From the IMG/VR virus record IMGVR_UViG_2713896773_000027: 13,526 nt of DNA. One strand, given 5' to 3'. The notes under the pieces are model-generated. The model had not been told where the DNA came from, made no database searches, and worked only from the letters and a program-made list of their open reading frames with translations. Shown in pieces: positions 1 to 13,526 of the stretch (position 1 is its first letter; each line of letters starts with the position of its first letter). The DNA is from a virus (lineage: Duplodnaviria; Heunggongvirae; Uroviricota; Caudoviricetes). The position numbers and the translations under genes are program-made.

Positions 1-19
1 CTATTTGATAAATATTAAA

Positions 20-1315
20 TTAATTTTTCATTGCTTCGTTATGGGGCATGGTTGGGGCAAACTCGCTTAACTGTGTATTTAACAAAGCTACCTGTGCATT
101 ATTGTTTTCAGACATCCATTTTCCGTATACCTGAAATACCATTTGCGCATCTGCATGGCCCATCTGGTTTGCTATAAATGCCGGGTTAGCACCAGCTGTC
201 AGCGACCAGCAGGCATAAGTATGTCTCGACTGATATGATTTTCGATGGCGGAGTCCGGCACGTTTTATCGCTGCGTCCCACATCTGCCTTATTGAGTCAA
301 CGGTAAAATGGTCACCATAATTTTTTACTCTCGCTGACACTTCAGGTTGAAAAACAAAGGTGCATTTTTGTTTTTCTGTTCTGCCATACTCTCTGAGGTG
401 AACATCAATGATATGCTCTTTGCTCAGTCTCGTTAATGTCATCTGACTCCGGAGAGCGTCGATTGCTGGCTTAATAAGATGAATGACCCGATTGGTTCCC
501 GCCTGTGTTTTTGGTACCGTGAAACGGTCTTTTGCTAAATTTCTCCTGATCATCATTGTTCCATTTTTCAGATCTATGTCCTCCCATCCAAGTGCACACA
601 GCTCACCAGGGCGAACTCCAGTATAAACAGAAACACACCATAAATTTTTTGCTTGCTGATTTCTGCACGCATCGATAAGACGGATAAATTCTTCCCGCGA
701 AAGAGGATCCGGAATGGTTCTTGATTCCTTTAATGGCGAGATCCCCTTAAACGGATTATCTGCCAGGTAACCGTTATCAACACCAAACTGGAACACGGCG
801 TTAAGATTTGTCATGTAATTATTTACAGTTACAGCCGATCTCCCTGGTTGTGTAACAATATAGTTACTTTTGGGGATCTGGTATCCAGTCAGTAACTCTT
901 TACGAACCTCCAGTAATTTTTCTTTATTAATCGATGAGGCAAGATTTTTTTCACCGATTATGCTCAGGATATTTTTGATGACGGCACGGTATGTGTTGAG
1001 TGATGTTTTGGCGACTTCAGTTTCTTTCAGTGCCAGAAATTTTTCAGCCAGTTCTTTTATGGTTAAATCTTGTCGGGCCTCACCAAATTTTTCCAGATTG
1101 CGTGAGGAGGGAAACTGTTTTGCATAGTCGAAAACACCAGTTTTTATTGCGTAACAAACAGAGGAGCGTAGTTCACCTGCAACGCGCCTGTTTTTTGCTG
1201 TGTCAGGAACCCCCAGATTTTCCCTGACTCTTACGTCTTTATAAACAAACCAGATACGTAATTTCCCTCCATGGTTTTCCACGCCTGTCGGATATTTCAT
1301 TTCAACTTCTCTCAT
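20..1315 (-). CDS. int: phage tyrosine integrase (site-specific recombinase)
   Basis: 431-aa ORF. Tyrosine-recombinase signature segments are visible: GVRPGELCALGWEDIDL (box I Arg), SRHTYACWSL (box II), QMGHADAQMVFQVYGKW (catalytic Tyr region). It sits at the edge of the element next to an excisionase-like gene on the same strand, as in lambdoid int-xis modules. An alternative start at Met6 (MKYPTG) is possible. Confidence 0.9.
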   Translation of the reverse strand: MREVEMKYPTGVENHGGKLRIWFVYKDVRVRENLGVPDTAKNRRVAGELRSSVCYAIKTGVFDYAKQFPSSRNLEKFGEARQDLTIKELAEKFLALKETEVAKTSLNTYRAVIKNILSIIGEKNLASSINKEKLLEVRKELLTGYQIPKSNYIVTQPGRSAVTVNNYMTNLNAVFQFGVDNGYLADNPFKGISPLKESRTIPDPLSREEFIRLIDACRNQQAKNLWCVSVYTGVRPGELCALGWEDIDLKNGTMMIRRNLAKDRFTVPKTQAGTNRVIHLIKPAIDALRSQMTLTRLSKEHIIDVHLREYGRTEKQKCTFVFQPEVSARVKNYGDHFTVDSIRQMWDAAIKRAGLRHRKSYQSRHTYACWSLTAGANPAFIANQMGHADAQMVFQVYGKWMSENNNAQVALLNTQLSEFAPTMPHNEAMKN

Positions 1316-1334
1316 TAGTTAGTGTGGCTTTTAG

Positions 1335-1586
1335 TCAAGTAAGATGACGTCTTGGTCTCGCTGATGCCTGGCGCTCAATCCAGCGATCAATTTCTTCCAG
1401 GTTGTAAAAGCATGGACTGTTATCCCATGGCATACCGTCATGAGCGACATGCTTATATTCCCTTCCTTCCATAAACGATTTTTCCCGGGCCTTTTTTAAC
1501 GTACCTTTTTTTATTCCTTTCAGCGCAATTAACTGCTCTTCGGATACCCATTTGCCGGGAGAGACAATCATGATTACTTCGCTCAT
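1335..1586 (-). CDS. xis: excisionase-like small DNA-binding protein (Xis/AlpA-like)
   Basis: 83-aa ORF immediately upstream of int on the same strand. It is small and basic with a helix-turn-helix-like segment (LIALKGIKKGTLKKAREK) followed by a Trp-containing wing (EEIDRWIERQ). Position and size fit a recombination directionality factor; no homology search was run. Confidence 0.6.
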   Translation of the reverse strand: MSEVIMIVSPGKWVSEEQLIALKGIKKGTLKKAREKSFMEGREYKHVAHDGMPWDNSPCFYNLEEIDRWIERQASARPRRHLT

Positions 1587-1658
1587 CGATTTCTTTATCT
1601 CTTACATCAGACGAGCGCCGGTTGCAGAATACCAGTCACAACCGGCGACAGTTGAACA

Positions 1659-3290
1659 TTAAGAATCAGCCTGACTCGGGATCAGTTTTTGCCAGATAAC
1701 TGAAACGTATTTTGCCTGGTAACGGGCGTCATCAAGTGCATTATGGCGCTCACCTTCGAATGGAATAGCCGTTCTGGCATCGAAGTCTATGGCTTTCCCC
1801 AGCTCAACGATTGTGCGTACATCGCGATCGTTGTAGTAACGCCACGGGCAGGGGATCCCCTGCCGTTCGTATGAACGGCGCAAAATCGTGTTGTCGAAGT
1901 TGGCTCCATTTCCCCAAACCTGAACAAAAAATTCACCGGAGTTTTCGTCGATAAATTCTCGCAATTGTAACAGTGCATCATCTAACGGGATTTCATCGGT
2001 CATAATGGCAGATTGCGCTTCGCGTGATTGCTTAAGCCACCATTTAATGGTGTCCCGATCAATGACTCCGCCAGCAGTTTCCAGATCGATAGTCTTACTA
2101 AATTCCGGTCCCATATCTCCGGTTTGCGGATCGAAAAATATTGCACCTATTGAGATGATCGGGGCATCAGGATTTTTTCCCATGGTTTCAAGGTCGATCA
2201 TTAGATGGTCACACGTCCTGCTGGTGGATGTGATTTCGTGATGACCGTTCACCTTAATTGGGTGATCTGCCGTCTCGCCAGTTTCATTATCGCTATTGTG
2301 ATGCTGATTGCCGCCAGTGTTCTCCTTGTGTGGATGTTCAGCGCCTTCCATTTCCTCCGGATCATCTTCCTGAACTTCAACCTGATACTCTTCATCGAAT
2401 GTTTCTTGGTATGTTGCGTCGCCCATCACCGCGCCACAATCAGGGCAGTTGCCGCCGCCGGTCTGACCGCAGGCGGTGCAGACTTTTTCCACTTCCTGTT
2501 GCGCTACTGGTTCAGGCTGTTTCGTTTCTGGCTCGTTTTGTAACGCATTTGGACTGTTTTGTTCCGCTTTTTGGTAGTTCCGTTCCGATTCATGCTGGTT
2601 CTGGTTCACAGAATCGCGGGTCTGGAGCCCCTTAACCCATTTCGGATCATTCGGGTCACTAATCCCTTCAACAAATTCACCACGTGATGCAGCAAGCAAC
2701 TTATCGGCGTCAGGCTGGCTGATATTGGCTGCCTGCATAATTTTGTTTACTTCGTCAGCGGTAACTTTTATCGGCTCTGGTTGTTCTGAATCTTCAGCGG
2801 TATCTACATTTTGCGGTAAGCCCGTGTATGTGCCATTTTTTCGGGCAAAATATTCTTCTTTTGTGATTTCAGTGGCGCCAGCAGCCAGTGCCTTATCCAG
2901 ACCAGAGAGTTTGTTTGCGCGACCGTATTTTTCTCCGTCCTTATCTGCGAAGAGGAAATAGAACGGCCCCTCACGCTCTACAGATGGTTCAGCTTCCGGC
3001 GCGGTTTCATTTTTTGGGATATCAGATACCTCAGTTTCCACTGCATCAGTTTGTGTTTCTGATGACTGGAGAACATCAACAGTGCCCAGGTCTGTTTCTT
3101 CATTCTCAAACACGCCCTTTGTCGTCAGGTATTCGCAGATATATTTGTTCAGTGCTACGGGATCTTTGTGAATGTCGATCGGACGCTCACGGACAAGGCC
3201 AAAAATAGTTTGGCGGTCGTAGCGAAGGGCATCAGGCTGTTTGCGCATTGATGCCGAGATACGCTGAGGTAGCCTGAGTTTAACGGACAC
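1659..3290 (-). CDS. prophage exonuclease with C-terminal DnaQ-like (DEDDh) 3'-5' exonuclease domain and central Cys4 zinc-ribbon; probably 5'-truncated
   Basis: 543-aa ORF. The C-terminal third carries the three exonuclease motifs: Exo I MIDLETMG, Exo II VWGNGANFDNTIL, Exo III HNALDDARYQ. A Cys cluster CTACGQTGGGNCPDCG lies mid-protein. It occupies the position of recombination exonucleases in lambdoid early-left operons. The apparent GTG start at 3288-3290 lies inside the inferred IS3-family inverted repeat (3265-3290), and the first ATG (3246-3248) has no Shine-Dalgarno, so the native 5' end is probably lost. Confidence 0.7.
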   Translation of the reverse strand: MSVKLRLPQRISASMRKQPDALRYDRQTIFGLVRERPIDIHKDPVALNKYICEYLTTKGVFENEETDLGTVDVLQSSETQTDAVETEVSDIPKNETAPEAEPSVEREGPFYFLFADKDGEKYGRANKLSGLDKALAAGATEITKEEYFARKNGTYTGLPQNVDTAEDSEQPEPIKVTADEVNKIMQAANISQPDADKLLAASRGEFVEGISDPNDPKWVKGLQTRDSVNQNQHESERNYQKAEQNSPNALQNEPETKQPEPVAQQEVEKVCTACGQTGGGNCPDCGAVMGDATYQETFDEEYQVEVQEDDPEEMEGAEHPHKENTGGNQHHNSDNETGETADHPIKVNGHHEITSTSRTCDHLMIDLETMGKNPDAPIISIGAIFFDPQTGDMGPEFSKTIDLETAGGVIDRDTIKWWLKQSREAQSAIMTDEIPLDDALLQLREFIDENSGEFFVQVWGNGANFDNTILRRSYERQGIPCPWRYYNDRDVRTIVELGKAIDFDARTAIPFEGERHNALDDARYQAKYVSVIWQKLIPSQADS

Positions 3291-3591
3291 TCCTTCCTGA
3301 AATAGAATGGCATCAGAAGGAGCTAATAATGAGCAGAAAAACCCAACGTTACTCTAAAGAGTTCAAAGCCGAAGCTGTCAGAACGGTTCTTGAAAATCAA
3401 CTTTCGATCAGTGAAGGCGCTTCCCGATTATCTCTTCCTGAAGGCACTTTAGGACAATGGGTTACCGCCGCCAGAAAAGGGCTCGGTACTCCTGGTTCCC
3501 GCACGGTGGCTGAACTGGAATCTGAAATTCTGCAACTGCGTAAGGCGTTAAATGAAGCTCGCCTTGAGCGAGATATATTAAAAAAAGCAAC
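3265..3591 (+). mobile_element. IS3-family insertion sequence remnant (IS600-like), left end plus truncated orfA; interrupted by IS30
   Basis: The terminal sequence TGAGGTAGCCTGAGTTTAACGGACAC (3265-3290) starts with TG and ends with GGACAC like IS3-family left inverted repeats. It is followed after about 40 bp by an orfA-type ORF. The element stops abruptly at 3591, where the IS30 inverted repeat begins. No orfB or right inverted repeat is present in the window. Confidence 0.6.
3329..3591 (+). pseudogene. IS3-family transposase OrfA (IS600-like), truncated after codon 88 by IS30
   Basis: Translation MSRKTQRYSKEFKAEAVRTVLENQLSISEGASRLSLPEGTLGQWV...LERDILKKAT has the helix-turn-helix plus leucine-zipper layout of IS3-family OrfA. 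A Shine-Dalgarno AGGAG sits at 3318-3322. The last nucleotide of the final in-frame codon (ACT, Thr) is the first base of the IS30 terminal repeat. The 134-aa ORF on the track is an artefact running into IS30 and the N-run. Confidence 0.75.
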
Positions 3592-4595
3592 TGTAGATTC
3601 AATTGGTCAACGCAACAGTTATGTGAAAACATGGGGTTGCGGAGGTTTTTTGNNNNNNNNNNNNNNNNNNNNNNNNNNNNNNNNNNNNNNNNNNNNNNNN
3701 NNNNNNNNNNNNNNNNNNNNNNNNNNNNNNTAAGCGGGCTGTAGCTCACCTGACACTGTCTGAGCGCGAGGAGATACGAGCTGGTTTGTCAGCCAAAATG
3801 AGCATTCGTGCGATAGCTACTGCGCTGAATCGCAGTCCTTCGACGATCTCACGTGAAGTTCAGCGTAATCGGGGCAGACGCTATTACAAAGCTGTTGATG
3901 CTAATAACCGAGCCAACAGAATGGCGAAAAGGCCAAAACCGTGCTTACTGGATCAAAATTTACCATTGCGAAAGCTTGTTCTGGAAAAGCTGGAGATGAA
4001 ATGGTCTCCAGAGCAAATATCAGGATGGTTAAGGCGAACAAAACCACGTCAAAAAACGCTGCGAATATCACCTGAGACAATTTATAAAACGCTGTACTTT
4101 CGTAGCCGTGAAGCGCTACACCACCTGAATATACAGCATCTGCGACGGTCGCATAGCCTTCGCCATGGCAGGCGTCATACCCGCAAAGGCGAAAGAGGTA
4201 CGATTAACATAGTGAACGGAACACCAATTCACGAACGTTCCCGAAATATCGATAACAGACGCTCTCTGGGGCATTGGGAGGGCGATTTAGTCTCAGGTAC
4301 AAAAAACTCTCATATAGCCACACTTGTAGACCGAAAATCACGTTATACGATCATCCTTAGACTCAGGGGCAAAGATTCTGTCTCAGTAAATCAGGCTCTT
4401 ACCGACAAATTCCTGAGTTTACCGTCAGAACTCAGAAAATCACTGACATGGGACAGAGGAATGGAACTGGCCAGACATCTAGNNNNNNNNNNNNNNNNNN
4501 NNNNNNNNNNNNNNNNNNNNNNNNNNNNNNNNNNNAGTTCAAAACACCGAAAGAGATAATTGAAAGGGGTGTTGCATTGACAGATTGAATCTACA
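3592..4595 (+). mobile_element. IS30 insertion sequence; interior contains two N-runs (3653-3730, 4483-4535) that are assembly gaps of non-native length
   Basis: The ends are imperfect inverted repeats: left TGTAGATTCAATTGGTCAACGCAACAG (3592 onward), and the reverse complement of the right end (to 4595) is TGTAGATTCAATCTGTCAATGCAACAC. The internal ORF translates to the IS30 transposase sequence as I recall it. The flanks (..GCAAC | GTGTTG..) show no 2-bp target duplication. Confidence 0.85.
3732..4588 (+). CDS. insI: IS30 transposase (DDE family), visible portion; true start codon lies inside the first N-run and a mid-gene stretch inside the second
   Basis: The frame opening at 3732 reads KRAVAHLTLSEREEIRAGLSAKMSIRAIATALNRSPSTISREVQRNRG... 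and after the second gap ...KFKTPKEIIERGVALTD, ending at a TGA (4586-4588) inside the right inverted repeat. This matches the IS30 transposase. The interruptions are Ns, not mutations, so this is not necessarily a pseudogene. Confidence 0.85.
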
Positions 4596-4622
4596 GTGTT
4601 GTATTGTATAAATAGAGTACAT

Positions 4623-4664
4623 AAAGCCATCAATATTTCTATCGATGGCTTTATCTTTTTATTG
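4623..4664. terminator. hairpin (13-bp stem with one mismatch, 4-nt loop) followed by a T-run; likely terminator downstream of the tail-fibre assembly gene, possibly bidirectional
   Basis: AAAGCCATCAATA-TTTC-TATCGATGGCTTT (4623-4652) followed by ATCTTTTTATT on the + strand. On the - strand the same stem lies just after the tfa stop codon (4659-4661). It is 28 bp from the IS30 right end. Confidence 0.5.
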
Positions 4665-5237
4665 CGGGGCGACTGGCCACTCAACATCCGCTGCTACTGC
4701 TGTATCAACACGATTCAACAATACCCGATATGTCTTCCATGCAGTCAGTAACGATGCCTCTTCCTCCGTCGCAATATCCAAATCTACGGCATCCTGAAGT
4801 GGCGCAATATGCTCACTGGCCATCTGCATCAGGCTGTTTTTTGTTTCTTCCGCCTTCCGGATCCGGAACAGTTTTTCTGCTTCTGCATCTTTCACCCAGG
4901 CTGTGCCGTTCCACTTCTGAAACTCCCCTTCCGGGGATAACCAGGTGACATTTTCCGGTAATGGGCCAAGTTCAGAAATAAATAACGCGTCGCCGGAAGC
5001 CACGTCATAGACGGTTTTTCCCCGATGGTCTTCAACGAGATTCCACGATGCCTCATCACTGTTGAAAACGGCCACGAAGCCAGCCGGAATATCTGGCGGG
5101 GCAATATCGGTACTGTTTGCAGGCAGACCTGTATGAGGTGGAATGTATGCATCACCTTCACCAATAAACTCATTGGTTCCAGCCAGTAGATTATAAATTT
5201 TTATGGTCCGTGATTGTTCACTCATTCTGAATGTCAT
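4659..5237 (-). CDS. tfa: phage tail fibre assembly protein (Tfa / Mu U / P2 G family chaperone)
   Basis: 192-aa ORF. Its ATG overlaps the upstream tail-fibre stop by one base (TAATG), a classic Stf-Tfa coupling. The N-terminal region ([38 protein letters not shown]...) and size are typical of the Tfa family. Confidence 0.9.
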
Positions 5238-6853
5238 TATGCAAGCCTCACAATATAGTTAAATGCGATGTTTTTTACGGTGTTTTCTTCGTTACCCGTA
5301 GCGTTAACGGTGATGGTGTGTCCGTGGGGACCAATAATGACAGAATGGGCATGAGCACCAATGCCGATAGTGTGGTTATGGGCACCGATATATACATTGT
5401 GAGCATGCCCTCCTGCGCTCGACGTGGTACCAGTACCTAACGCAGCGTTATAACCGGCTGATACACCATTCCCCGCGCCAGTGTGACCAACAGGTATATT
5501 GTGTGAATGAGCTCCTGCGCTATTTGTGGTTTTTGTGCCGTAATCAAATGAACTGGTCGTTTTAGTACCGTAATCAAACGACGATGTGGTTTTCGTCCCC
5601 AAATCCGTACTGGATGCACTGGCGCTGTGGGTGTGCGATTTAATGCCGTCCTGTTCCTGAGACAATACTGCACGACCACTGGCGGGCTTGCCCTTAATCG
5701 TCCAGCTACGCATATCAGGGATCACACCTGACGGATAAGCGGCTGCAAGTTTCGGGTATGCAGATTTGTCAAAAGTCTGCCCCTGCATCAGGGCATAACC
5801 AGACGGAACGGTATCTGATGGCCAAGGGATCGGTGCGCCAACCGGATAAAGTTCATGCGGCGAAATATACAGCGAATAAACAGAACCGTCCGTTAATCCT
5901 TCCGGCTTATTAGCAGAATATGCTGGTGAAGTATGAATCGTTACGCTGGCATTACTGGTATAATCCCATTGAATATTTACACCAGTCGCATAATTTCCAA
6001 TAGCAACGTAAATATCGTAAGTGTCACCAGAAGTATTGACCCACGCAAAATTTGTAAACCCTGCCGATGTGCGCTGCCATAAAGCTCCAGTAATCCCCTT
6101 CGGATTACCGTTACCTGCACGCAAAACAAGTTCAGATATACCTGCCTGTTGAGGTGACCCCACGTTAAATCCCGCGCCACCAATCAACGTAATTGAAACA
6201 ACAGAACTTGCCTGCGGCATGGTTACAGTTGCCAGCTTGAACCATCCTGCACCACCACTAAAAGACATTGTTGTGGAGTTGATTGTGCCTATAGACCGTG
6301 GGTTAAGTTCAATATCTTTAGAACCATCAAACGAGACGCCATTGATAGCACATGCTGTCTGCAACTTGGTCGCTGTAGCCGCATTACCAGAGGTGTCCTG
6401 ATTCCCTTTGGCATTGACGCCGGGAATTGAATCTTTTGACGTATAGACCTGCGCCCATTCAGACCAGTTGGCAGAATCAGTATCCCGCCGCGAACGGATA
6501 TGTACGGGCGCATGGGCACCGCTCGTGCCACTCCAGCCAATGAATAACTCACCTTCGCCAGCAGCGGTGGCACCTTTAAGGTGAAGCACATTGCCATAGG
6601 GGGAAGGGTAGCCATTGTTGTATGCCTCATACAGCTGAATCCCGGATGTTCCCTGTGCATTCGCCTCCAGGGCCGTTACGCGACCGCGAGATACCAGAGT
6701 ATTGATATTAATGTCAGCCGAACCATCGAACCTGACGCCATTAATGTTTCTGGCTGTTTTTAATTTCGTCGCGGTGTCGGCGTTCCCCGCCAGCGCCCCG
6801 GTGATCCCACCGTTGAAAGTCTGGCGTGCACTCCATGTGTTAGCCGTGCTCAA
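5237..6853 (-). CDS. phage tail fibre protein, C-terminal variable (receptor-binding) cassette without its own start; reading frame stays open upstream through the crossover site to about 6931
   Basis: Contains two copies of the phage tail-fibre repeat ([26 protein letters not shown] and [28 protein letters not shown]), tandem [10 protein letters not shown] repeats, and C-terminal HxH repeats (HSHN, HAHN, HNHT, HAHS, HGHT). The listed start is a TTG chosen by the ORF finder. Translating upstream in frame gives ...[15 protein letters not shown]... with no ATG and no Shine-Dalgarno, consistent with a silent Sv'-type segment of an invertible host-range region. Confidence 0.85.
5528..5599. repeat. 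approximately 30-bp imperfect tandem repeat (about 2.4 copies) inside the tail-fibre coding region
   Basis: GGTTTTTGTGCCGTAATCAAATGAACTGGTC / GTTTTAGTACCGTAATCAAACGACGATGTG / GTTTTCGTCCCC on the + strand, encoding the [10 protein letters not shown] repeats on the - strand. Confidence 0.5.
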
Positions 6854-6883
6854 CAGGGGGATCTTTTCACCGCTTGTGCCAAG

Positions 6884-6909
6884 TTCTCTTAAACCAAGGT
6901 TTAGGATTG
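6884..6909. other. hix/gix/cix/pix-like 26-bp crossover site for the adjacent serine invertase
   Basis: TTCTCTTAAACC-AA-GGTTTAGGATTG is an imperfect palindrome with a central AA. By my recollection of hixL (TTCTTGAAAACCAAGGTTTTTGATAA) it matches at 19 of 26 positions. It overlaps the last codons of the invertase gene and lies in-frame within the upstream extension of the tail-fibre cassette. No second copy was found in the window. Confidence 0.6.
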
Positions 6910-7461
6910 AAATGATGACGCCGGAAACTTCTTATAAAGCGTGGAAACAGCCACATCATAGATGATTGCAACCTGCTTACGGGGGATGCCCTTCTCGAGC
7001 AATCGCCGCATTTGCTGCCATGTTTCTTCTTGGTATTTAGGCCGACGCCCACCTATACGACCTTCTGCGCGAGCTGCATCAAGTCCAGCGCGTGTACGTT
7101 CAACGATAAGCTCACGTTCCATTTCTGCCAGCGCCCCCATTACGTGAAAGAAAAAGCGCCCCATTGGTGTACTGGTGTCGATGGAGTCAGTGAGACTCCG
7201 GAAGTTAATGCCTCTGTCACGCAGCTCTTCCACCAGCACAACTAAGTGACGCATGCTGCGCCCAAGACGATCTAACTTCCATACGACTAGGGTGTCACCT
7301 CTGGAAAGCATACGGAGAACCTTTTTTAACCCAGGGCGTTCAGCCTTTTTGCCGCTCGCCTTGTCCTCAAAAATTAGCTTACATCCTGCGCTTTCAAGGG
7401 CATTTCGTTGTAAAGCAGTGTTTTGTTCATTTGTTGATACGCGTACATAGCCAATTAGCAT
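6901..7461 (-). CDS. pin: serine-recombinase DNA invertase (Hin/Gin/Cin/Pin family)
   Basis: 186-aa ORF starting [27 protein letters not shown]... with the catalytic Ser in the YVRVST motif, a resolvase/invertase catalytic domain ([16 protein letters not shown]...) and a C-terminal helix-turn-helix ([22 protein letters not shown]). It is very close to the E. coli Pin sequence as I recall it. The symbol denotes family membership, not a confirmed ortholog. Confidence 0.9.
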
Positions 7462-7588
7462 ATTTTCTGCTCACCATAGTTATTCATAGCAAGCTGCGGA
7501 TTTTAATTAACAGAAACCAGTGTGTGTGGAAATCACAAAGTGCATACCGTGCCCCAATGATGTTTTATTGAAAAGCGGGGTTACTTTA

Positions 7589-7870
7589 ATGTTTGATTTA
7601 ACCATATTTTTTATAACCATCCTTGGAGGCGTGCATTCGTTTCTGAATGGGGTTCGTGAAAAACGTTACGAAGCGTCATGCAGGCAATTGATGGCCGAGT
7701 GTATTGCTGCCGTACTTGCAGGCTTTATAGGCATGTATTTCGCGGAATATAAGGGTATGGATGAAAGTCTTCAGAATTGCGTGACTATTATTTGCAGCAT
7801 CAATAACAGGCTCATTCTTGAAAAGTTACAAAGGATTATCGATTCGTACCTCAGTAGCAATGCCTCTTAA
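7589..7870 (+). CDS. small membrane protein with two predicted transmembrane segments; holin-like (hypothesis)
   Basis: About 93 aa from the ATG at 7589; the track's GTG at 7520 has no Shine-Dalgarno. Hydrophobic stretches LTIFFITILGGVHSFL and CIAAVLAGFIGMYFA. Paralogous to the next ORF (GG..TFL..VR-D/E..; AGxxAxxLG motif). Function is inferred from size and topology only. Confidence 0.55.
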   Translation: MFDLTIFFITILGGVHSFLNGVREKRYEASCRQLMAECIAAVLAGFIGMYFAEYKGMDESLQNCVTIICSINNRLILEKLQRIIDSYLSSNAS

Positions 7871-7937
7871 GCAACAAATGACCGGTTGAGAAGTTACTTT
7901 GCATACCATTACCTCCTGACAACGTAGGAGGGAACTT

Positions 7938-8267
7938 GTGCTTGACACACAGGAATTAGCTCCAGTTGCTATTGCGCTCCTGCTTTCAGTAATTGGTGGG
8001 ATAGGCACGTTCCTGATGGATGTCCGAGACGGTCGCCAGTCTGGCAATTTGTTGGGATTGGTTACGGAGATCTTTGTTGCAGTGACAGCTGGCGCGGTGG
8101 CGTACCTATTGGGGCAACACGAGGGCTGGGAGTTATCAATTACGTACTTAATGGTAACGATAGCCAGCAATAACGGTCATGAGGTGATTTCAGGGATGAA
8201 ACGAGTGAATATCGATAGCATTCTGAATGTTCTTACAAGTTTGGTGAAAAAGGGAGGCGGGAAATGA
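7938..8267 (+). CDS. small membrane protein with two to three predicted transmembrane segments; holin-like paralog (hypothesis)
   Basis: 109 aa. GTG start preceded by a strong Shine-Dalgarno AGGAGG (7925-7930). Hydrophobic stretches VAIALLLSVIGGIGTFLM and IFVAVTAGAVAYLLG. Its stop overlaps the next gene's ATG (ATGA). Confidence 0.7.
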   Translation: MLDTQELAPVAIALLLSVIGGIGTFLMDVRDGRQSGNLLGLVTEIFVAVTAGAVAYLLGQHEGWELSITYLMVTIASNNGHEVISGMKRVNIDSILNVLTSLVKKGGGK

Positions 8268-8707
8268 TTGGCTGGGGTGTATGCGTTCTTGCGTTAGCCT
8301 TAGCCGATCGCTATTTGCTAAAACGCAAGGACATCACGCATTTAGAACTTGGTGATGTGGAAATTAAACCGGGTTTCATCCGGGTGCCGTTCAAATACCG
8401 GTCTAAATTCCCGTTTTTGCGCGGCGCAACAGTCAGATATTGGATCCGCGATGTTCAGAAGCCGACGACAGTGATTGAAGGCGAACAACGTTGTTTGACG
8501 TCGGCTGAACAGGGCGAAAACAGTGAATGGTTGTACATACCCACTGAATATATGGGTAAAGGAGAGCGACTGTGGCATTTCAACGTCATGGTTACGCATG
8601 GCGACTCGTTCATTAACCCGTTGTATCGGATTTTCCCTGTTACTCAGCAAATCCGCAGAAGTTACGTAATAAATCTCGCACAGGATGTGTCAGATGACGA
8701 AAAATAA
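8264..8707 (+). CDS. hypothetical protein with N-terminal signal-anchor-like hydrophobic segment
   Basis: 147 aa. ATG preceded by GGGAGG, overlapping the upstream stop. N-terminus MIGWGVCVLALALADRY is hydrophobic. No recognisable catalytic motif by eye. Confidence 0.65.
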   Translation: MIGWGVCVLALALADRYLLKRKDITHLELGDVEIKPGFIRVPFKYRSKFPFLRGATVRYWIRDVQKPTTVIEGEQRCLTSAEQGENSEWLYIPTEYMGKGERLWHFNVMVTHGDSFINPLYRIFPVTQQIRRSYVINLAQDVSDDEK

Positions 8708-9296
8708 GTATGCAACGGTCGATTTTGACCAGGTTAATGAAAAGGGGCTGAAATCCCTTATCGCGGCGATCAATAAAACCGGGGTTACGGTAATTGAGGT
8801 TGACTCCAGCAACCGCGCAACAACGAAAGATGGCGTTAAAGTTAAAACCGCAAAGCTGGTTCTTAACGACGGACAAATCCTTGCCATACAGGTAAACGAT
8901 ACTGGCGATATATCGTCTGTGAAACTGAATGGAAAAGCTATTCCTAACGCTCAGTCGCCGGATATCAAGACGCTTGGTACCGTCATGGGACAGGCGGCCC
9001 GCAAAAACTCCGCAAAATTCCAGAAATCACTGATCGCCAAAGCGAAGCGTGTAGCCAATCCGGTAGACAAGAAACCGGCAGTTAAATCCAACTTTCAGCG
9101 CCTGCAAGAAGCAAAACAGCGGAATGCTCAGGTGGTTGCCGCTTATAAGTCCGCGCAGAATTCGGTGTCTTTCAATCAACAGCAGATCACTGATTTGCGG
9201 GCGAAGCTGGATAAGGAGACGGGCCGACTCAATAACGAAAAGGCACGGAATGGCGAACTCAAACGTCGTCTTAAGCAACTGAAAGCAGGAAATTAA
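8694..9296 (+). CDS. hypothetical protein; N-terminal domain shared with the next ORF plus C-terminal basic coiled-coil
   Basis: About 200 aa from the ATG at 8694 (Shine-Dalgarno AGGA at 8682-8685); the track start at 8685 is less likely. The start overlaps the upstream gene's end. Shares LNDGQILAIQ ... KNSAKFQK with the next ORF. C-terminus is rich in K/R/Q/E heptad-like sequence. Confidence 0.7.
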   Translation: MTKNKYATVDFDQVNEKGLKSLIAAINKTGVTVIEVDSSNRATTKDGVKVKTAKLVLNDGQILAIQVNDTGDISSVKLNGKAIPNAQSPDIKTLGTVMGQAARKNSAKFQKSLIAKAKRVANPVDKKPAVKSNFQRLQEAKQRNAQVVAAYKSAQNSVSFNQQQITDLRAKLDKETGRLNNEKARNGELKRRLKQLKAGN

Positions 9297-9297
9297 C

Positions 9298-10329
9298 ATG
9301 GAACAGTTCAATATCAATAAAGGGGTGACGATCAAGCCTGGGCTTGACGTGCTTCCCCCGCCAGTGACTGATGATGAATATCGCGCATTAATGGCCGGTG
9401 AGGACCGCTATCTGATGACGGAATCCAACACCCTGGAGGAAATCGAGGCTACGTTCTTCTATGACACGCCGATCCACTGGTGTGCTACGGATTTACTGGA
9501 GGCGATTAGTTCTACTCGTTTGCAGTTACACCGGACCATGCAGGCATTTGTCCGGGCATTGAACCAGAAGCTGAATGGCACCGGAATCTCTGCGGGGAGT
9601 GATAAAACGGGGGATGTGGCCCAGAGCGGCGCGCGCGCGATCGGCGGTGCTGAAATTGGCCGGGCACGGAACGTTAACGGGCTGCCGGTCCTGCCAGCCA
9701 TTATTCCGCTCAGTGATGGTCAGACTATCAGCATTCTGTTTCATAGCCCGACAGCGGAAAACCGGATCACCAATAGCGATACGCTGGTTGCTTTCCAGTT
9801 CTTACTGAATAAAAAAGACGTTACTCACACCGTTGCTCCGATGAGTGGACGTGATATGACGCTGGCGCAGGTCACCATGAAACTTGCCAACCTTGCAGAG
9901 AAAAACTCGGCAAAATTCCAGCGTGCGCAGAAGAAGAAAAAAGCCCTGGTTGATGAAATAACCCAACTACAGGCTGACAGTGACCAGAAAGAGGATGCCA
10001 TGAGCGACCTCGCGGATCAGGTGGCAGCGGTAGAAGGGCAGAAGGTAGATCTGGAGCAGAAAATTAACGCTGTTGCATCGGAAGCGGATTCTCTTTATGA
10101 AGAGAATGAGCGTTTGCAGACGGAGATTGATCAGCTCAATCGCACTGGTGGGCGCGAAACCATTGCTCCTGCGGGGATGACTGGTGGACACTCTCGCGCG
10201 ATGACGGATCGCCTTGCAAGTATCAAAAATCGTATGCATATGAACGGGGAAGTGACGCTCAGTAATGGTGCATCAATGAAGCAATTCATTGAGGACGGTG
10301 AAGGGTATATCCAGTTAACTGGGATGTGA
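9298..10329 (+). CDS. hypothetical protein, paralogous domain (DGQ...KNSAKFQ) plus long acidic coiled-coil
   Basis: 343 aa. ATG one base after the upstream stop, Shine-Dalgarno AGGA at 9285-9288. Motifs LSDGQTISIL and EKNSAKFQRAQKKKK. Coiled-coil segment LVDEITQLQADSDQKEDAMSDLADQVAAVEGQKVDLEQKINAVASEADSLYEENERLQTEIDQL. Confidence 0.8.
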   Translation: MEQFNINKGVTIKPGLDVLPPPVTDDEYRALMAGEDRYLMTESNTLEEIEATFFYDTPIHWCATDLLEAISSTRLQLHRTMQAFVRALNQKLNGTGISAGSDKTGDVAQSGARAIGGAEIGRARNVNGLPVLPAIIPLSDGQTISILFHSPTAENRITNSDTLVAFQFLLNKKDVTHTVAPMSGRDMTLAQVTMKLANLAEKNSAKFQRAQKKKKALVDEITQLQADSDQKEDAMSDLADQVAAVEGQKVDLEQKINAVASEADSLYEENERLQTEIDQLNRTGGRETIAPAGMTGGHSRAMTDRLASIKNRMHMNGEVTLSNGASMKQFIEDGEGYIQLTGM

Positions 10330-11714
10330 AGACGCTGGATAAACAGGTTGATGTAACTCCCGATGAAGATGCTGTTATGCAGAAAATCAGTGGTGGCGTC
10401 TCCATCGCCGGGATTAACGACATCATTTCCTGTGACGATTTCTACCGTTTCCAGCAGCGCGGCATGATCAAAATCACTGACTCATACGGCGTTCAGACTA
10501 CAGAGTCAGGCTATAGCATTGATTTTGTTGGTACCTATACGGACCCACTGAAGCATGCGGTTTACCCGGATCGCCGTGACGGCGCGCTGAAGTCGTCAAT
10601 TGCAAAATGGGTGCTTGGTATGATGTCGGAAGGGAATAACCGCCAGATCCGTTCGGCAGAAACATTCCTGGTTGAACTGTTTGGCTCCAATTATGGCGAT
10701 GTAATCGCGTCATACGGAGATACGCTATCCCCTGAAGCAATTCAGGAGAAAATAGCGGATGCGATCGCCAGAATGCCGGAAAAAACAAGCCAGGGGGCTA
10801 CTCGTAACGGGGATTCTGAACTTGAAGTCACCAATGCCATTTTCGGTACCAATGAGTTCCGGGCGTCAGATTATGAGATCACCACAGCACAGTTTGGCAC
10901 CATTGGCATTTACAGCAATAAAGCCGAGATCAAGCAGGCAATGGACGCAGCAAGCGCGCGCATCGCAGCAGAACGGGAAGCCAATCTGAATCATGCAGTC
11001 GCCGCACTGACTCAATCGTGGGTAACAGCAATCAGGGAGGCCGCCACCACAGGGAAAATCACACCTGCAATTGCGGATGTCGTAAACGACGGCTCTAAAT
11101 TTATGGATGCCTATCAAATGGATGCGGTGCAGTTGCCATCAGCCTATGGCCAACTCAGCTATCGCATGACCTACAACCTGGTATCAATGTTTACTGACCT
11201 TGCCATCCTTGGGCTGGTGGACCTTAACGAGGTTACGCCGGAATTACTCAGCATGCGCAAGAATCATGTTGAGATATTGCAGAGAATTAACACGGTTCTT
11301 GCCGGGCGCACCGATGAAGAGAAACAGGCCGACGCTGATCGGATAAACCTGGCCCTAGGCAACATCACGGAGGAAGAAATTGCCGCCAGAAACGAGAAAC
11401 AAGAAGAGTTATCATCAATACAGGGTGATGCCACCAGCATAGCTCAGTCTCTTGGGCTGAATTATCGCGTATCCACCGCCGACCTGAAGATGATGTACGC
11501 ACCAAAATTCGCCGCTGGCGAGGTATTTGGGCTTCAGGAAGCCTCCGGCATGAAAGGGGTTCTTTTCCGTGCGAAAGACGCAATCAAGGCGAAATTCGGC
11601 GCTCGCTGGTTGCCAGCGAAGGCGAAGAACAGCGACTTCCCAGGTAACTGGTGGATTATCGAGACAAAACACAACGTGGCGGACGTTCTGGCCGTCATCC
11701 AACAATACGCATAA
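10326..11714 (+). CDS. hypothetical protein (462 aa), translationally coupled to the upstream gene
   Basis: GTG start overlapping the upstream TGA (GTGA). Long uninterrupted ORF. No Walker, nuclease or other catalytic motif recognised by eye. Confidence 0.8.
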   Translation: MKTLDKQVDVTPDEDAVMQKISGGVSIAGINDIISCDDFYRFQQRGMIKITDSYGVQTTESGYSIDFVGTYTDPLKHAVYPDRRDGALKSSIAKWVLGMMSEGNNRQIRSAETFLVELFGSNYGDVIASYGDTLSPEAIQEKIADAIARMPEKTSQGATRNGDSELEVTNAIFGTNEFRASDYEITTAQFGTIGIYSNKAEIKQAMDAASARIAAEREANLNHAVAALTQSWVTAIREAATTGKITPAIADVVNDGSKFMDAYQMDAVQLPSAYGQLSYRMTYNLVSMFTDLAILGLVDLNEVTPELLSMRKNHVEILQRINTVLAGRTDEEKQADADRINLALGNITEEEIAARNEKQEELSSIQGDATSIAQSLGLNYRVSTADLKMMYAPKFAAGEVFGLQEASGMKGVLFRAKDAIKAKFGARWLPAKAKNSDFPGNWWIIETKHNVADVLAVIQQYA

Positions 11715-11720
11715 CAGGAG

Positions 11721-11738
11721 CGCCCGGTTCGCCGGGCG
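11721..11738 (+). promoter_or_regulatory. intercistronic GC-rich stem-loop with TTCG tetraloop between a Shine-Dalgarno sequence and the next start codon
   Basis: CGCCCGG-TTCG-CCGGGCG. AGGAG (11716-11720) lies immediately 5' of the stem and the ATG at 11748 lies 9 nt 3' of it. There is no U-tract, so it is unlikely to be a simple terminator. Confidence 0.5.
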
Positions 11739-11747
11739 TCGCATAAT

Positions 11748-12188
11748 ATGGCCACATTATCTGATACAATAAAACCGAATAAAACATATCTTGAGGCGGT
11801 GCTGCGTACGGCGTTGTTAGGAAAGACAGAAGACGAATACGTTGATTTCTTCCTGTCAGGGCTACGCGGGCGATTACTGAAAAATCCCCGCCTGTACCGC
11901 AGCTATGGTCCATACTGGCCGGAAATTAAAAAATTATTACTGGAGCGCGGTTATGGTAATTTCGGTCGTCTCGTTGACCGTGACGTTCGCAAAATTTACC
12001 GTTATGACCGTCCGGCGCTGACGCTCATAGCCGCGACGCTCTACAGCCAGGAGCGTTTTGATAATGGTCAGATATACTCAGCCTGGCATTTACTGCCAGT
12101 GCCTGAAGAGGTTGACGACCAGGACTATGAGTTTGAGTCTTACGATTTGGAAGTTGAAGCCTTGGCACAGGCTGGAGAGAAAACTTGA
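11748..12188 (+). CDS. hypothetical protein (146 aa)
   Basis: ATG start 9 nt after the stem-loop. Acidic C-terminus (EEVDDQDYEFESYDLEVEALAQAGEKT). No recognisable domain by eye. Confidence 0.7.
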   Translation: MATLSDTIKPNKTYLEAVLRTALLGKTEDEYVDFFLSGLRGRLLKNPRLYRSYGPYWPEIKKLLLERGYGNFGRLVDRDVRKIYRYDRPALTLIAATLYSQERFDNGQIYSAWHLLPVPEEVDDQDYEFESYDLEVEALAQAGEKT

Positions 12189-12433
12189 AGAAGCGATACT
12201 ACACAGTAAAGCATGGGACGCTACGAGCATTGCAAGAGTTTGCTGATAAGCATAACGTTGAGGTGCGCAGGGAAGGGGGAAGTAAAGCTCTGCGCATGTA
12301 CCGTCCTGACGGAAAATGGCGGACGGTCGTCGATTTCAAAACTAACAGTGTTCCCCAGGGCGTCCGCGACCGGGCATTCGAAGAATGGGAGCAGATCATC
12401 ATAGATAACGCATTGCTTCTGAACGCTGATTAA
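12185..12433 (+). CDS. small basic hypothetical protein (82 aa), translationally coupled
   Basis: TTG start overlapping the upstream TGA (TTGA), with Shine-Dalgarno GGAGAG at 12171-12176. Last gene of the co-directional string before a hairpin. Confidence 0.6.
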   Translation: MKKRYYTVKHGTLRALQEFADKHNVEVRREGGSKALRMYRPDGKWRTVVDFKTNSVPQGVRDRAFEEWEQIIIDNALLLNAD

Positions 12434-12443
12434 TAATCATTTA

Positions 12444-12464
12444 AAGCCCATATGATATGGGCTT
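12444..12464 (+). terminator. hairpin (10-bp stem AAGCCCATAT / ATATGGGCTT) separating the coupled operon from the AT-rich downstream gene; weak U-tract
   Basis: A perfect inverted repeat is seen directly. It is followed by AAACAACAGG on the + strand, so intrinsic terminator function is uncertain. It coincides with a sharp shift in base composition. Confidence 0.4.
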
Positions 12465-12515
12465 AAACAACAGGATCGATATACAGTGTTAGTTAAATAT
12501 ATAGGCGAGAGTTAT

Positions 12516-13526
12516 ATGGAAAAACCTTGGCCGGGCATGCACATTAGAACATCTTGTCTGGAGGATGGTTTCTTTAGAGCAACGCAACCAAAGTATCTTA
12601 ATGATCCGTCGAGTGAGTCGCGACTTCTTCCATTTTTTAATAAATTTTCACCAGCCGATTACGCATGGGCTAGAAATGAATTTAAGAAAATGCAACGAGA
12701 TCCATCTTATGTCCCATCTATACAAGAGTTAGAGTATTATTTAAAACCTTGCGGGAAACGATACGGAGAGGATTTTCCACACTTGTTAATCAATGAAGGT
12801 TTTACCTCAATGGATTCATATGATGAATCTAAACTCCAAGAAATAGTAACGTACCTTAACGATTATTTAGTAGAAGCCGTAAGCTGTCATCTTGGTGTAT
12901 TCTCTCTATCAAAAAGTGATTGCAATCTACACATGTGGACTCATTATGCATCGATAGGAAAGGGGTTTGCTGTAGTTTTCGATGAAACACACGATTTTTT
13001 CAAAATATATAGGCCGTGTGATGTTAGTTATAATCCAGAAGATAGAGCATCTGTAACCTATTATAAAGGCGCTGTGCGATTTAATGGCTATCCTGCGCCA
13101 TCGAGGAATATAGATATAAAGAATAAAGATAATACATTGCATGGGATCTTAAATCGAGATTCAGTTCGCGAGCTTTTTATTAATAGGCTCCTTTATACAA
13201 AAGGTGAAGAGTGGCTTCCTGAAAATGAAAGTAGAATTATTTTTCCTTTAGCTGATTGCGAGAGAAAGATAGGAAGTATTGTCTCTCCATCGATTGATGA
13301 TTGCCTATTAAATGAGTATCCTGATGTTTTTCATGACTATCATGAAATTAACTTAAAGAAAATTCCTTTTTCTGCATTCAAGCAAATTACCTTAGGGTAT
13401 AACATGACTGAAAAAGATAAAAATATAATTTTAGATAAAGTTAGTTCGAATAAAGAATTGTCTCACGTCAACGTATTACATTCAAAACTTGATATATACG
13501 GAAAGGTTGTGGTTAAGCCCATGTAA
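12516..13526 (+). CDS. AT-rich orphan protein of unknown function (about 336 aa); candidate horizontally acquired accessory or defence gene
   Basis: ATG at 12516 with GAGAG 5 nt upstream; the track's GTG at 12486 is less likely. The ORF ends exactly at the window end (TAA). Visibly lower GC than all neighbours. Contains CHLGVFSLSKSDCNLHMWTHYASIGKGFAVVFDE. No known catalytic motif recognised by eye. Confidence 0.8.
   Translation: MEKPWPGMHIRTSCLEDGFFRATQPKYLNDPSSESRLLPFFNKFSPADYAWARNEFKKMQRDPSYVPSIQELEYYLKPCGKRYGEDFPHLLINEGFTSMDSYDESKLQEIVTYLNDYLVEAVSCHLGVFSLSKSDCNLHMWTHYASIGKGFAVVFDETHDFFKIYRPCDVSYNPEDRASVTYYKGAVRFNGYPAPSRNIDIKNKDNTLHGILNRDSVRELFINRLLYTKGEEWLPENESRIIFPLADCERKIGSIVSPSIDDCLLNEYPDVFHDYHEINLKKIPFSAFKQITLGYNMTEKDKNIILDKVSSNKELSHVNVLHSKLDIYGKVVVKPM

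Follow-up and report, generated by a model that had tools for sequence, protein, structure and literature searches.

The window analysed here is a 13,526-nt stretch of viral DNA (IMG/VR record IMGVR_UViG_2713896773_000027) that resembles one prophage, carrying integrase, excisionase, tail fibre, invertase and lysis genes. Sequence comparison suggests that it holds a single IS30 copy, flanked on one side by a P1-like phage-plasmid fragment and on the other by the left arm of a Qin-type prophage from the chromosome. In what follows, a slash within a sequence marks a junction.

A Qin-type prophage arm interrupted by IS600

The left part of the window carries the following features.

20–1315, minus strand: tyrosine integrase of a Qin-type lambdoid prophage, 431 aa (PHROG integrase, E 2.8e-75)
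1335–1586, minus strand: excisionase (PHROG excisionase, E 1.4e-35)
1659–3264, minus strand: 3'-5' exonuclease gene, N-terminally truncated by IS600 (PHROG exonuclease and Pfam Rv2179c-like)
3262–3264, no strand: CGC, left copy of the IS600 3-bp target duplication; the right copy is missing from the window
3265–3591, plus strand: IS600 left end, comprising IRL, orfA codons 1–87 and 2 bases of codon 88 (327 bp, 100% identical to FORC 064 IS600; Pfam HTH_Tnp_1)
3590–3591, no strand: AC, left copy of the 2-bp IS30 target duplication of relatives (FORC 064, ...GCAAC/IS30/ACAGCG...)

In E. coli FORC 064 and in 10 long contigs, the prophage beside rspB matched the int–xis–exo arm with 100% identity, and so did the FORC 064 integrase taken by itself. 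The FORC 064 copy of the integrase is split by ISCro1. The window begins 19 nt past the int stop codon and does not reach the chromosomal flank; rspA/rspB adjoin the integrase in all 10 long contigs listed. The exonuclease is labelled "missing N-terminus" in both FORC 064 and AST198, and the mechanical ORF at 1659–3290 takes its GTG start from within IS600. Downstream, Qin relatives carry DUF977', a methyltransferase, flxA, relBE and hokD.

IS600 is a member of the IS3 family with terminal inverted repeats, two reading frames (orfA and orfB) linked through −1 frameshifting on an A-run, and a 3-bp target duplication. Its left inverted repeat in the window, TGAGGTAGCCTGAGTTTAACGG, has its first base at 3265, and orfA starts at 3329 and matches the intact OrfA (100 aa in the translation compared) exactly over 87 codons plus 2 bases (...RDILKKAT). 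The fragment ends 5 nt past the A7 frameshift run (3580–3586). The initial annotation had placed the cut by the IS30 left end at codon 88, which proved correct, the cut falling two bases into the codon. It had also regarded the remainder of the IS3-family element as lost, and indeed the window contains neither IS600 orfB nor IRR, beyond IS30 or elsewhere, and thus a fragment of a family member, not a complete element.

Related genomes display the earlier states of this site. AST198 (one genome) has an intact 1264-bp IS600 with its CGC duplication at the identical exo site, and its IS30-free insertion site reads ...GCAACAGCG...; in AST198 and FORC 064, IS600 is bounded by ...ATACGC and CGCTTC..., both CGC copies being kept. 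The exo'–IS600L–IS30 arrangement was found in 33 finished E. coli genomes, in which the same IS30 lies within an otherwise complete IS600 with an AC/AC duplication. In FORC 064, IS30 is followed by ACAGCG... and the IS600 remainder; the rest of IS600 follows this Qin IS30 in at least 25 finished genomes (those listed), and this ordinary right junction reads ATCTACA/ACAGCGTATTTTGC. The same IS600 site is occupied by IS30 in the inverted orientation in two other strains, indicating that the site has been hit repeatedly and that a hot spot beside the IS3-family frameshift run is used by IS30 in both orientations. The Qin locus also carries a 5.5-kb deletion from within IS30 to flxA in one relative (L013) and an IS30 truncated by IS1 in another (L151).

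A gapped IS30 copy with discordant flanks

The IS30 copy and its two gaps are as follows.

3592–4595, plus strand: IS30, 1221 bp in finished copies; nt 1–61, 218–969 and 1162–1221 are sequenced (PHROG transposase)
3653–3730, no strand: assembly gap 1, 78 N in place of IS30 nt 62–217 (156 bp), by comparison with finished copies
4483–4535, no strand: assembly gap 2, 53 N in place of IS30 nt 970–1161 (192 bp), by comparison with finished copies

IS30 is about 1221 bp long, ends in imperfect inverted repeats of some 26 bp, has a single DDE transposase gene (383 aa) and gives a 2-bp target duplication after simple insertion. The copy in the window spans 1004 positions, inclusive of the two N runs, from its left end TGTAGATTCAATTGG at 3592 to its right end ...GATTGAATCTACA at 4595, and a repeat search recovered its inverted-repeat arms at 3592–3617 and 4570–4595. 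The readable part of its ORF (3786–4559), which is broken by both N runs, matched the PHROG transposase (E 2e-44). The alignment of the junctions to intact references, as proposed in the initial annotation, succeeded over the 327 bp of IS600 and over 873 sequenced IS30 bases in three pieces, which were 100% identical to the 1221-bp FORC 064 copy; for IS30 it was interrupted by the N runs. We considered that these runs might be length-preserving masks and rejected this, as they are 78 and 139 bases short and their edges lie at repeat branch points. Gap 1 ends exactly at IS30 nt 217, the commonest polymorphic position (28 distinct copies; alleles A/G), and the start of gap 2 coincides exactly with nt 969/970, the point at which the IS30 copy in NCTC9040 is cut short by ISKpn26. 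The junction at which IS30 is cut by an IS5-family element is CATCTAG/GGAAGGTGCG.

The bases flanking IS30 (...AAAAAAAGCAAC/ and /GTGTTGTATTG) are AC and GT, so that, as annotated initially, there is no direct repeat, whereas the same copy is flanked by AC/AC in FORC 064 and other relatives. Since AC and GT are complementary, the IS30 inverted repeat is lengthened to 28 nt. This complementarity was considered as a mark of inversion and rejected; it is coincidental, because the GT is native to the P1-type empty site. Judged from its flanks, the IS30 at 3592–4595 may well be a hybrid copy whose flanks derive from two different insertion sites: the left flank would come from the IS600 frameshift-run hot spot, and the right flank from an unrelated site in the middle of a P1-family C-segment. 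Other IS30 copies with hybrid flanks were seen in two further sequences (L007 and L008).

A P1-type phage-plasmid fragment to the right of IS30

The right part of the window carries the following features.

4596–4615, plus strand: last 20 nt of the serine acetyltransferase gene (sat), with the stop codon (CDS end at L002 9520 = window 4615)
4621–4654, no strand: hairpin between the convergent sat and tfa, ATAAAGCCATC...GATGGCTTTAT (unchanged in L002)
4659–5237, minus strand: tail fibre assembly gene tfa, U' of the P1-type C-segment (PHROG tail fibre assembly, E 3.7e-97; Pfam Caudo_TAP)
5237–6853, minus strand: alternative tail-fibre C-terminal segment, Sv' (PHROG tail fibre; Pfam Collar)
6302–6907, no strand: inverted repeat of about 0.6 kb bounding the invertible C-segment, the sole remaining copy (matches L002 in both orientations, 9501-frame and 6952–6348)
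6901–7461, minus strand: Cin-type serine DNA invertase (PHROG DNA invertase, E 1.4e-93; Pfam Resolvase and HTH_7)
7520–10329, plus strand: P1-type lydA/lydB holin genes and the start of the dar operon, DarA_N proteins (PHROG holin and LydB; Pfam DarA_N)
10326–13526, plus strand: non-P1 cargo with a DUF2971 gene and three ORFs of 462, 146 and 82 aa (identity of 100% with both the NCTC9040 chromosome and 116–118 kb plasmids)

IS30 abuts the middle of a P1-type invertible C-segment. In P1-like plasmids, the intact serine acetyltransferase gene sits within this segment, and plasmid p15648-1, to which the right side was 99.1% identical over 5,724 bp, has an empty site there that reads ...CTAAAAAGAGCG GT GTTGTATTGTATAAATAG, the GT being window 4596–4597 abutting IS30. 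In the NCTC9040 chromosome, a mosaic of plasmid origin matched the right side over 8,884 bp with 100% identity. The hairpin and tfa described in the initial annotation do lie to the right of IS30, preceded by the 20-nt 3' end of sat. A simple terminator scan missed the hairpin at 4621–4654, which is native to the P1-type and P2-type cassette.

The tfa protein is WP_000144014.1 and is identical in p15648-1 and NCTC9040; contigs encoding exactly this protein were mostly P2-like prophages with a common tfa and acetyltransferase cassette. Sv' lacks the N-terminal constant part for fusion and is labelled "missing N-terminus" in p15648-1 and NCTC9040. Its exact 538-aa protein was found in only 7 contigs, all of them short except NCTC9040 and all ending in IS elements. 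In Cin/Gin/Pin-type systems, a serine invertase lies beside a tail-fibre segment that has a crossover site or repeat at each end, the two in inverted orientation. By alignment and repeat search, the window contains no second 0.6-kb repeat, in keeping with the annotated loss of the other half of the invertible segment. Were the junction real, the cin switch would be locked and unable to invert, because one repeat and the Sc–Sv–U half are gone.

Homology to P1-like plasmids ends at 10319 within darA (L002 alignment), and the cargo beyond it completes a conserved 9-kb remnant, after which comes IS5 in both L004 and NCTC9040. The stretch 4596–13526 (U', Sv', cin, lydA/B and darA') is a decayed fragment of a P1-family phage-plasmid. 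The initial annotation had one prophage losing its middle, including the other half of the invertible segment; this did not hold, since the tfa/tail-fibre/invertase side is foreign to the int–xis–exo prophage and of the P1 family.

Distribution of the two junctions

The right junction, IS30/GTGTTG, was present in four independent contigs (L004, L032/L142, L143 and L144) and is real, as this recurrence indicates. Each of these contigs ends inside IS30 and thus leaves the opposite side out of view. The exact right-junction 39-mer had no match in the GTDB set with one genome per species, and PLSDB plasmids and INPHARED phages contained only empty sites. The reciprocal P1 junction GAGCGGT/TGTAGATTC (P1 left flank, GT and IS30 left end) was absent from 5,426 finished genomes and IMG/VR, and also from 112 metagenome matches obtained with a pattern built for both junctions. 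Since the reciprocal junction was found nowhere in these searches, the P1 fragment does lie on one side of IS30 only. The left half of the P1 site (an A-run, then GC at −3/−2) resembles the IS3-family hot spot of IS30.

The Qin arm was joined to the P1-type side in none of the 5,426 finished E. coli genomes and in none of the plasmid and phage records searched. Among the finished genomes carrying that arm, none had the P1 remnant downstream of it. Conversely, about 135 kb inspected around the NCTC9040 remnant held only prophage and plasmid/P1 mosaic DNA and no Qin arm. The 33 finished relatives keep the rest of IS600 and of Qin after IS30, and the P1 side belongs to another element.

Origin of the fused arrangement

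The window thus consists of two different mobile elements abutting one IS30, which reflects either an IS-mediated fusion or a scaffolding error across a repeat. We see about an even chance that an IS30-dependent, genuine junction joins the Qin arm to P1-type DNA. In the corresponding history, IS600 would have entered the Qin exonuclease gene and IS30 would then have entered IS600 with a 2-bp AC duplication, both states being found in relatives. An IS30-dependent exchange would subsequently have linked the Qin copy to P1-type DNA at ...GAGCG[GT]GTTG..., either by RecA recombination with another IS30 that the P1-type element carried beforehand or by attack of an IS30 IR–IR junction (dimer) on the P1 site, leading to replicon fusion. 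Homologous recombination and transposase-made fusion yield the same product, and the sequence therefore cannot separate the two routes. Later IS activity (of IS5 and, in relatives, IS1) may have trimmed the captured DNA to the remnant of about 9 kb. IS30 is documented to form cointegrates, deletions and inversions via IR–IR junctions and to generate 2-bp duplications at hot spots (PMC9333248), as the initial annotation had stated for its hot spots and deletion-promoting intermediates.

A scaffold or assembly chimera, in which IS30 was collapsed and the left flank of one copy was threaded to the right flank of another, has a considerable, though somewhat less than even, probability. The source genome would then have several IS30 copies, among them an ordinary IS600L–IS30–IS600R in Qin and a separate IS30 abutting a P1-type remnant, possibly plasmid-borne, and the missing target duplication would be an artefact. 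The sole connection between the two flanks is an IS30 in three pieces, whose N runs (78/53) differ from the true 156/192 bp, and the unique flanks extend 61 and 60 nt into IS30, a symmetry expected of a k−1 overlap at the edges of a repeat. The end of gap 1 falls on the most often polymorphic IS30 position, gap 2 begins at the ISKpn26 truncation point of the IS30 in NCTC9040 (the sole finished genome with the remnant), and contig L004 starts at IS30 nt 950. All other assemblies stop inside IS30 at the P1-side junction, and with 0 of 5,426 finished genomes joining the sides, the 25 listed all have the rest of IS600 after IS30. A corrected assembly could well show the IS3-family remainder immediately after IS30, because the 33 finished relatives have it there and IS30 is gapped twice. 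On the other hand, scaffolders that use direct mate-pair links between unique contigs are usually correct, if the contigs were so linked. Moreover, an IS30 lies beside the P1 remnant with no P1 sequence opposite in any dataset, and hence was rearranged anyway, with IS600' as a possible partner; the Qin site itself is also unstable in relatives, where IS30 is inverted, truncated by IS1 or deleted.

The initial annotation had explained the arrangement by insertion of IS30 into IS600 followed by an adjacent deletion or an IS30-mediated rearrangement. Taken as an intramolecular deletion, this would have removed the remainder of IS600 together with adjoining DNA of that prophage or chromosome, as far as halfway into the invertible segment. 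An original left flank and a new right flank without a duplication are what an intramolecular IS30 product would have (PMC9333248), relatives with deletions at the locus exist (L013, 5.5 kb to flxA; L151, IS1 truncation), and NCTC9040 shows that a chromosome can carry P1-type DNA. However, the right side carries P1-type U'/Sv'/cin/lyd/dar where Qin relatives have DUF977', the methyltransferase, flxA, relBE and hokD; in none of the finished genomes does the P1 remnant follow the Qin arm, and the NCTC9040 remnant lies in a plasmid-derived mosaic, with the Qin arm absent from the ~135 kb inspected. Since an adjacent deletion needs both sides to be collinear on one molecule and no finished genome has them so, this account is not supported and is very improbable; a deletion within a single prophage was very probably not the event. 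The IS600 truncation and the missing duplication on which the rearrangement interpretation was built stand; adjacent deletion within one prophage is not supported.

In a more specific and rather doubtful version of the genuine fusion, the junction would be the surviving end of an event in which IS30 brought a P1-family phage-plasmid into a defective prophage of the chromosome, seeded by an IS30 copy in a hot spot beside the programmed-frameshift run of IS3-family elements. If so, IS30 would both disable IS3-family elements and use them as landing pads, which would later recruit plasmid or phage DNA into the chromosome.

The biology is ordinary whether the junction is genuine or artefactual. 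A real junction would be another case of an IS carrying phage-plasmid DNA into the chromosome, a known process, and would leave an IS600 unable to make OrfAB transposase and two adjoining dead phage fragments that mimic a single prophage. With two unrelated dead fragments in one window, prophage callers and comparative analyses would mis-describe it, and where a scaffold has gaps, the lack of a target duplication around an IS copy should not be taken for a rearrangement before the linkage is verified.

Comparison with known systems

The closest relatives of the left side are the Qin IS600::IS30 loci (FORC 064, NZ_CP022664.1; 33 finished genomes), which share int–xis–exo'–IS600L–IS30 and the left junction ...AAAAAAAGCAAC/TGTAGATT. 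There, AC, a 937-bp IS600 remainder and the rest of Qin come after IS30; P1-type DNA takes their place in the window. For the right side, the P1 C-segment/Cin system of p15648-1 (NZ_CP009051.1) has the same order of cin, Sv', U', 0.6-kb repeat and lydA/lydB/dar at 99% identity. Compared with p15648-1, the window lacks the Sc–Sv–U half, the second repeat and nearly all of sat, and homology ends in darA at 10319.

The chromosomal plasmid/P1 mosaic of NCTC9040 (NZ_LR134247.1, ~2.12–2.22 Mb) was 100% identical to window 4643–13526 and also has an IS3-family orfA'::IS30 fragment and many IS elements. Its remnant is bounded on the left by IS1 at window position 4643, where the window has IS30, and its IS30 fragment lies 12 kb away, inverted, in an IS911-like element and truncated at nt 969. 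In the CP4-6 region of E. coli K-12, IS911 is described as interrupted by IS30A (PMC9333248, Fig. 3 legend). As described there, IS30 likewise lies in the orfA end of an IS3-family element; the host element differs, and the case is a plain interruption. In an IS911-like element of NCTC9040 and of a further sequence (L006), IS30 occupies the counterpart of the IS600 site.

Olasz and colleagues reportedly described in 1993 how IS30 makes cointegrates, deletions and inversions through (IS30)2 or IR–IR junctions. In an IS30-mediated cointegrate, an IS30 copy stands on each side of the integrated replicon, the two in direct orientation, and the 2-bp target sequence recurs at both inner junctions. 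The window has a single junction, the other end of the remnant being IS5 in L004 and NCTC9040, and the second IS30 and the reciprocal junction are absent from the window and the databases searched. Szabo, Kiss and Olasz (2022; PMC9333248) list cointegrates, deletions and inversions as the products of (IS30)2 or IR–IR junctions. The predicted form of such products, a donor flank, IS30 and a target flank without matching 2-bp repeats, at a target like the hot-spot half site, is the form seen in the window.

Results

In the window, IS30 stands between a Qin-type prophage arm and P1-family DNA

The junction layout described in the initial annotation was confirmed: the IS600 left inverted repeat lay at 3265, orfA at 3329 and IS30 at 3592-4595, with bordering bases AC on the left and GT on the right.

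Features of the IS600/IS30 region
From 3265: IS600 left inverted repeat (sequence reading)
3329: start of IS600 orfA (sequence reading)
3580-3586: A7 run, the IS3-family frameshift site
From 3592: IS30 left end, TGTAGATTCAATTGG
3653-3730: N run 1, 78 N in place of 156 bp of IS30
4483-4535: N run 2, 53 N in place of 192 bp of IS30
To 4595: IS30 right end, ...GATTGAATCTACA

The orfA frame agreed with that of intact OrfA (100 aa) over 87 codons plus two bases (...RDILKKAT), and the A7 run lay 5 nt from the IS30 left end. The window IS30 was incomplete, with the two N runs falling inside a 1221-bp element; its 873 readable bases were 100% identical to the copy in the finished Escherichia coli genome FORC 064 (NZ_CP022664.1). 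The AC/GT flanks lengthen the IS30 inverted repeat to 28 nt with 89% complementarity (3590-3617 vs 4570-4597), a match (1 in 16) that we judged coincidental because the empty P1-type site already contains this GT.

Window 1-3591, carrying integrase, excisionase and an N-terminally truncated 3'-5' exonuclease gene, was 100% or 99.96% identical to the rspB-adjoining prophage of FORC 064, and rspA/rspB adjoined the integrase in each of the 10 long contigs listed as encoding exactly this exonuclease. By these alignments, the left side is a Qin-type chromosomal prophage arm. At the same site, strain AST198 carries IS600 intact (1264 bp, CGC duplication) and lacks IS30; its uninterrupted IS30 target reads GAGATATATTAAAAAAAGCAACAGCGTATTTTGC. 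Since FORC 064 shows a normal 2-bp AC duplication (...GCAAC/IS30/ACAGCG...), with the remaining IS600 and then Qin genes beyond IS30, and since IS30 lies inside the Qin IS600 in 33 finished genomes, the left junction is an ordinary, fairly widespread nested insertion.

On the right, window 4596-10319 was 99.1% identical to the P1-like plasmid p15648-1 (NZ_CP009051.1), in which the gene order is Sc/Sv tail fibre, U, serine acetyltransferase gene, U' (tfa), Sv', cin, lydA, lydB and darA. The window picks up this map inside the acetyltransferase gene, of which it keeps the last 20 nt; the entry point lies midway through the invertible C-segment, where the empty plasmid site reads ...CTAAAAAGAGCG GT GTTGTATTG. 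A single copy of the 0.6-kb C-segment repeat remained (6302-6907), confirming the earlier proposal that the invertible segment has lost one half. P1 homology stopped at 10319, inside darA, and the remainder to 13526 was non-P1 cargo. The block 4643-13526 recurred at 100% identity within a large plasmid/P1 mosaic in the E. coli NCTC9040 chromosome (NZ_LR134247.1), and 116-118 kb plasmids also matched part of it at 100%. With a Qin-type arm on one side and P1-type plasmid DNA on the other, the flanks of IS30 belong to two different mobile elements. The initial annotation read the junction correctly but interpreted it too specifically: its model of one prophage that had lost its head and tail genes does not hold, and an intramolecular deletion within a once-collinear stretch is very improbable.

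The break at 10319 has no IS at the junction. Around it (9298-11714), a 343-aa DarA_N-only ORF runs into the beginning of a 462-aa ORF, which lacks any Pfam match and carries the annotation helicase fragment in NCTC9040. Together, tfa and the 190-aa acetyltransferase gene next to it make up a cassette (window 4596-5237; loci L132-L139), and an identical tfa protein is common to P1-like plasmids, within the C-segment, and to P2-like chromosomal prophages, suggesting a host-range or O-antigen-modifying module swapped between phage families. The NCTC9040 mosaic (~2.12-2.22 Mb; L131, L003, L155) comprises ~100 kb of IS-riddled plasmid and P1 DNA with mobI/mobH, P1-type repA-parAB, cre, c1, pacAB, phd-doc, a type I R-M system and Tn3 fragments, and appears to be an integrated phage-plasmid/plasmid cointegrate.

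Each junction is real, but their linkage is uncertain

The right junction, IS30/GTGTTGTATTG, is real because it recurs in four independent contigs: L004 (IMG isolate), L032 (= L142; human-gut metagenome), and L143 and L144 (NCBI drafts). The reciprocal junction, in which ...GAGCGGT would run into the IS30 left end, was absent from finished E. coli genomes, from IMG/VR and from all 112 metagenome matches to a degenerate pattern designed to catch both junctions. In this lineage, therefore, IS30 marks a true truncation of the P1 fragment, and that IS30 copy is rearranged no matter what adjoins its other end.

We give the hybrid junction linking both flanks roughly an even chance of being real. 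None of 5,426 finished E. coli genomes, and none of the plasmid and phage records searched, joined both sides, and the independent right-junction contigs all stopped inside IS30. A scaffold chimera across a collapsed multi-copy IS30, which we rate at somewhat below even, would produce exactly this picture once threaded by a scaffolder, the missing target duplication included. The window scaffold is gapped at the link, which passes through two gaps whose edges resemble repeat-graph break points: the unique flanks run on into IS30 for 61 and 60 nt; the last position of gap 1 is nt 217, which was polymorphic more often than any other among 28 distinct IS30 copies compared; gap 2 starts at nt 969/970, exactly where ISKpn26 (IS5-family) cuts an NCTC9040 IS30 copy; and L004 starts at IS30 nt 950. 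Neither N run is as long as the sequence it stands for, so these are estimated scaffold gaps; length-preserving masks were ruled out. Moreover, 25 finished genomes among the matches listed have the ordinary structure at the Qin site. Conversely, a real rearrangement is plausible because relatives show instability at the Qin IS600::IS30 locus: contigs L148 and L154 carry IS30 inverted at this site, L151 has it truncated by IS1, and the IMG/VR contig L013 has it cut at nt 741 (3592-4332 onward) and fused to the flxA region with a 5.5-kb Qin deletion; in L149, IS600 is internally deleted to ~220 bp.

The first base of the window, shared with L013, lies 19 nt beyond the integrase stop codon, and the last falls exactly on the stop codon of a DUF2971 gene. 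The window resembles a provirus call cut from a longer scaffold at gene boundaries, in which case the caller took two unrelated remnants for one virus.

IS30 hot spot in IS3-family elements

IS30 occupied an equivalent position in three IS3-family elements unrelated at the DNA level (IS600, an IS911-like element and one whose OrfA starts MSGKRYPEEFK), 2 bp after ...ATATTAAAAAA(A/G)GCN, at the orfA end beside the -1 frameshift A-run. Instances included window 3570-3592, L003 2154, L006 1133-2353 and about 100 metagenome loci (L019-L130). The full site is near-palindromic, AAAAAAAGCC[AC]CGCGTATTTT, and in the MSGKRYPEEFK element (one flank variant) both IS30 orientations were about equally frequent (30 vs 28 contigs). 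This orfA-end site is a strong natural IS30 hot spot, at which insertion disables the host IS.

The nested IS600::IS30 (2487 bp) was found at many different loci (L005-L018, IMG genomes 2869924733 and 2874956758; L001 9666-12152), with up to five copies in one 43.6-kb contig and matching 3-bp duplications (CGC, GTA, TAT, TCC) around several. Either it moves as a unit via the IS600 ends, or IS30 struck many IS600 copies at one hot spot. Two other IS30 copies had hybrid flanks, with the IS600 left part on both sides, inverted (L007 6182-7402), or IS30 between the IS600 left part and an inverted IS911-like left part (L008 9225-10445); they stem either from IS30 x IS30 exchange or from chimeric assembly.

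Discussion

IS30 transposes by copy-out-paste-in via an IR-IR junction (minicircle or tandem dimer) that targets near-palindromic hot spots with a 2-bp stagger, yielding insertions, deletions, inversions or cointegrates (PMC9333248). The P1 site has the left half of the hot-spot pattern (A-run, GC at -3/-2) common to the IS600 and IS911-like sites. If the link is real, an IS30 dimer at the Qin IS600 site may have attacked a P1-type site, with the predicted fusion IS600L-AC/IS30/GT-P1...P1-GT/IS30/AC-IS600R; RecA recombination between the Qin copy and an IS30 already in a P1-type element would give the same product. The window would then represent the left end of this fusion, with IS5/IS1 events later deleting most of what had been captured.

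This case serves mainly as a caution: what looks like a prophage combines two remnants, and linkage should not be assumed from a gapped scaffold. Its components (IS600, IS30, the Qin arm and the P1 C-segment) are all already known, and IS30 rearrangements of this kind are textbook matter. Insertion of IS30 within an IS3-family element likewise has a precedent in IS911 of K-12 (PMC9333248).
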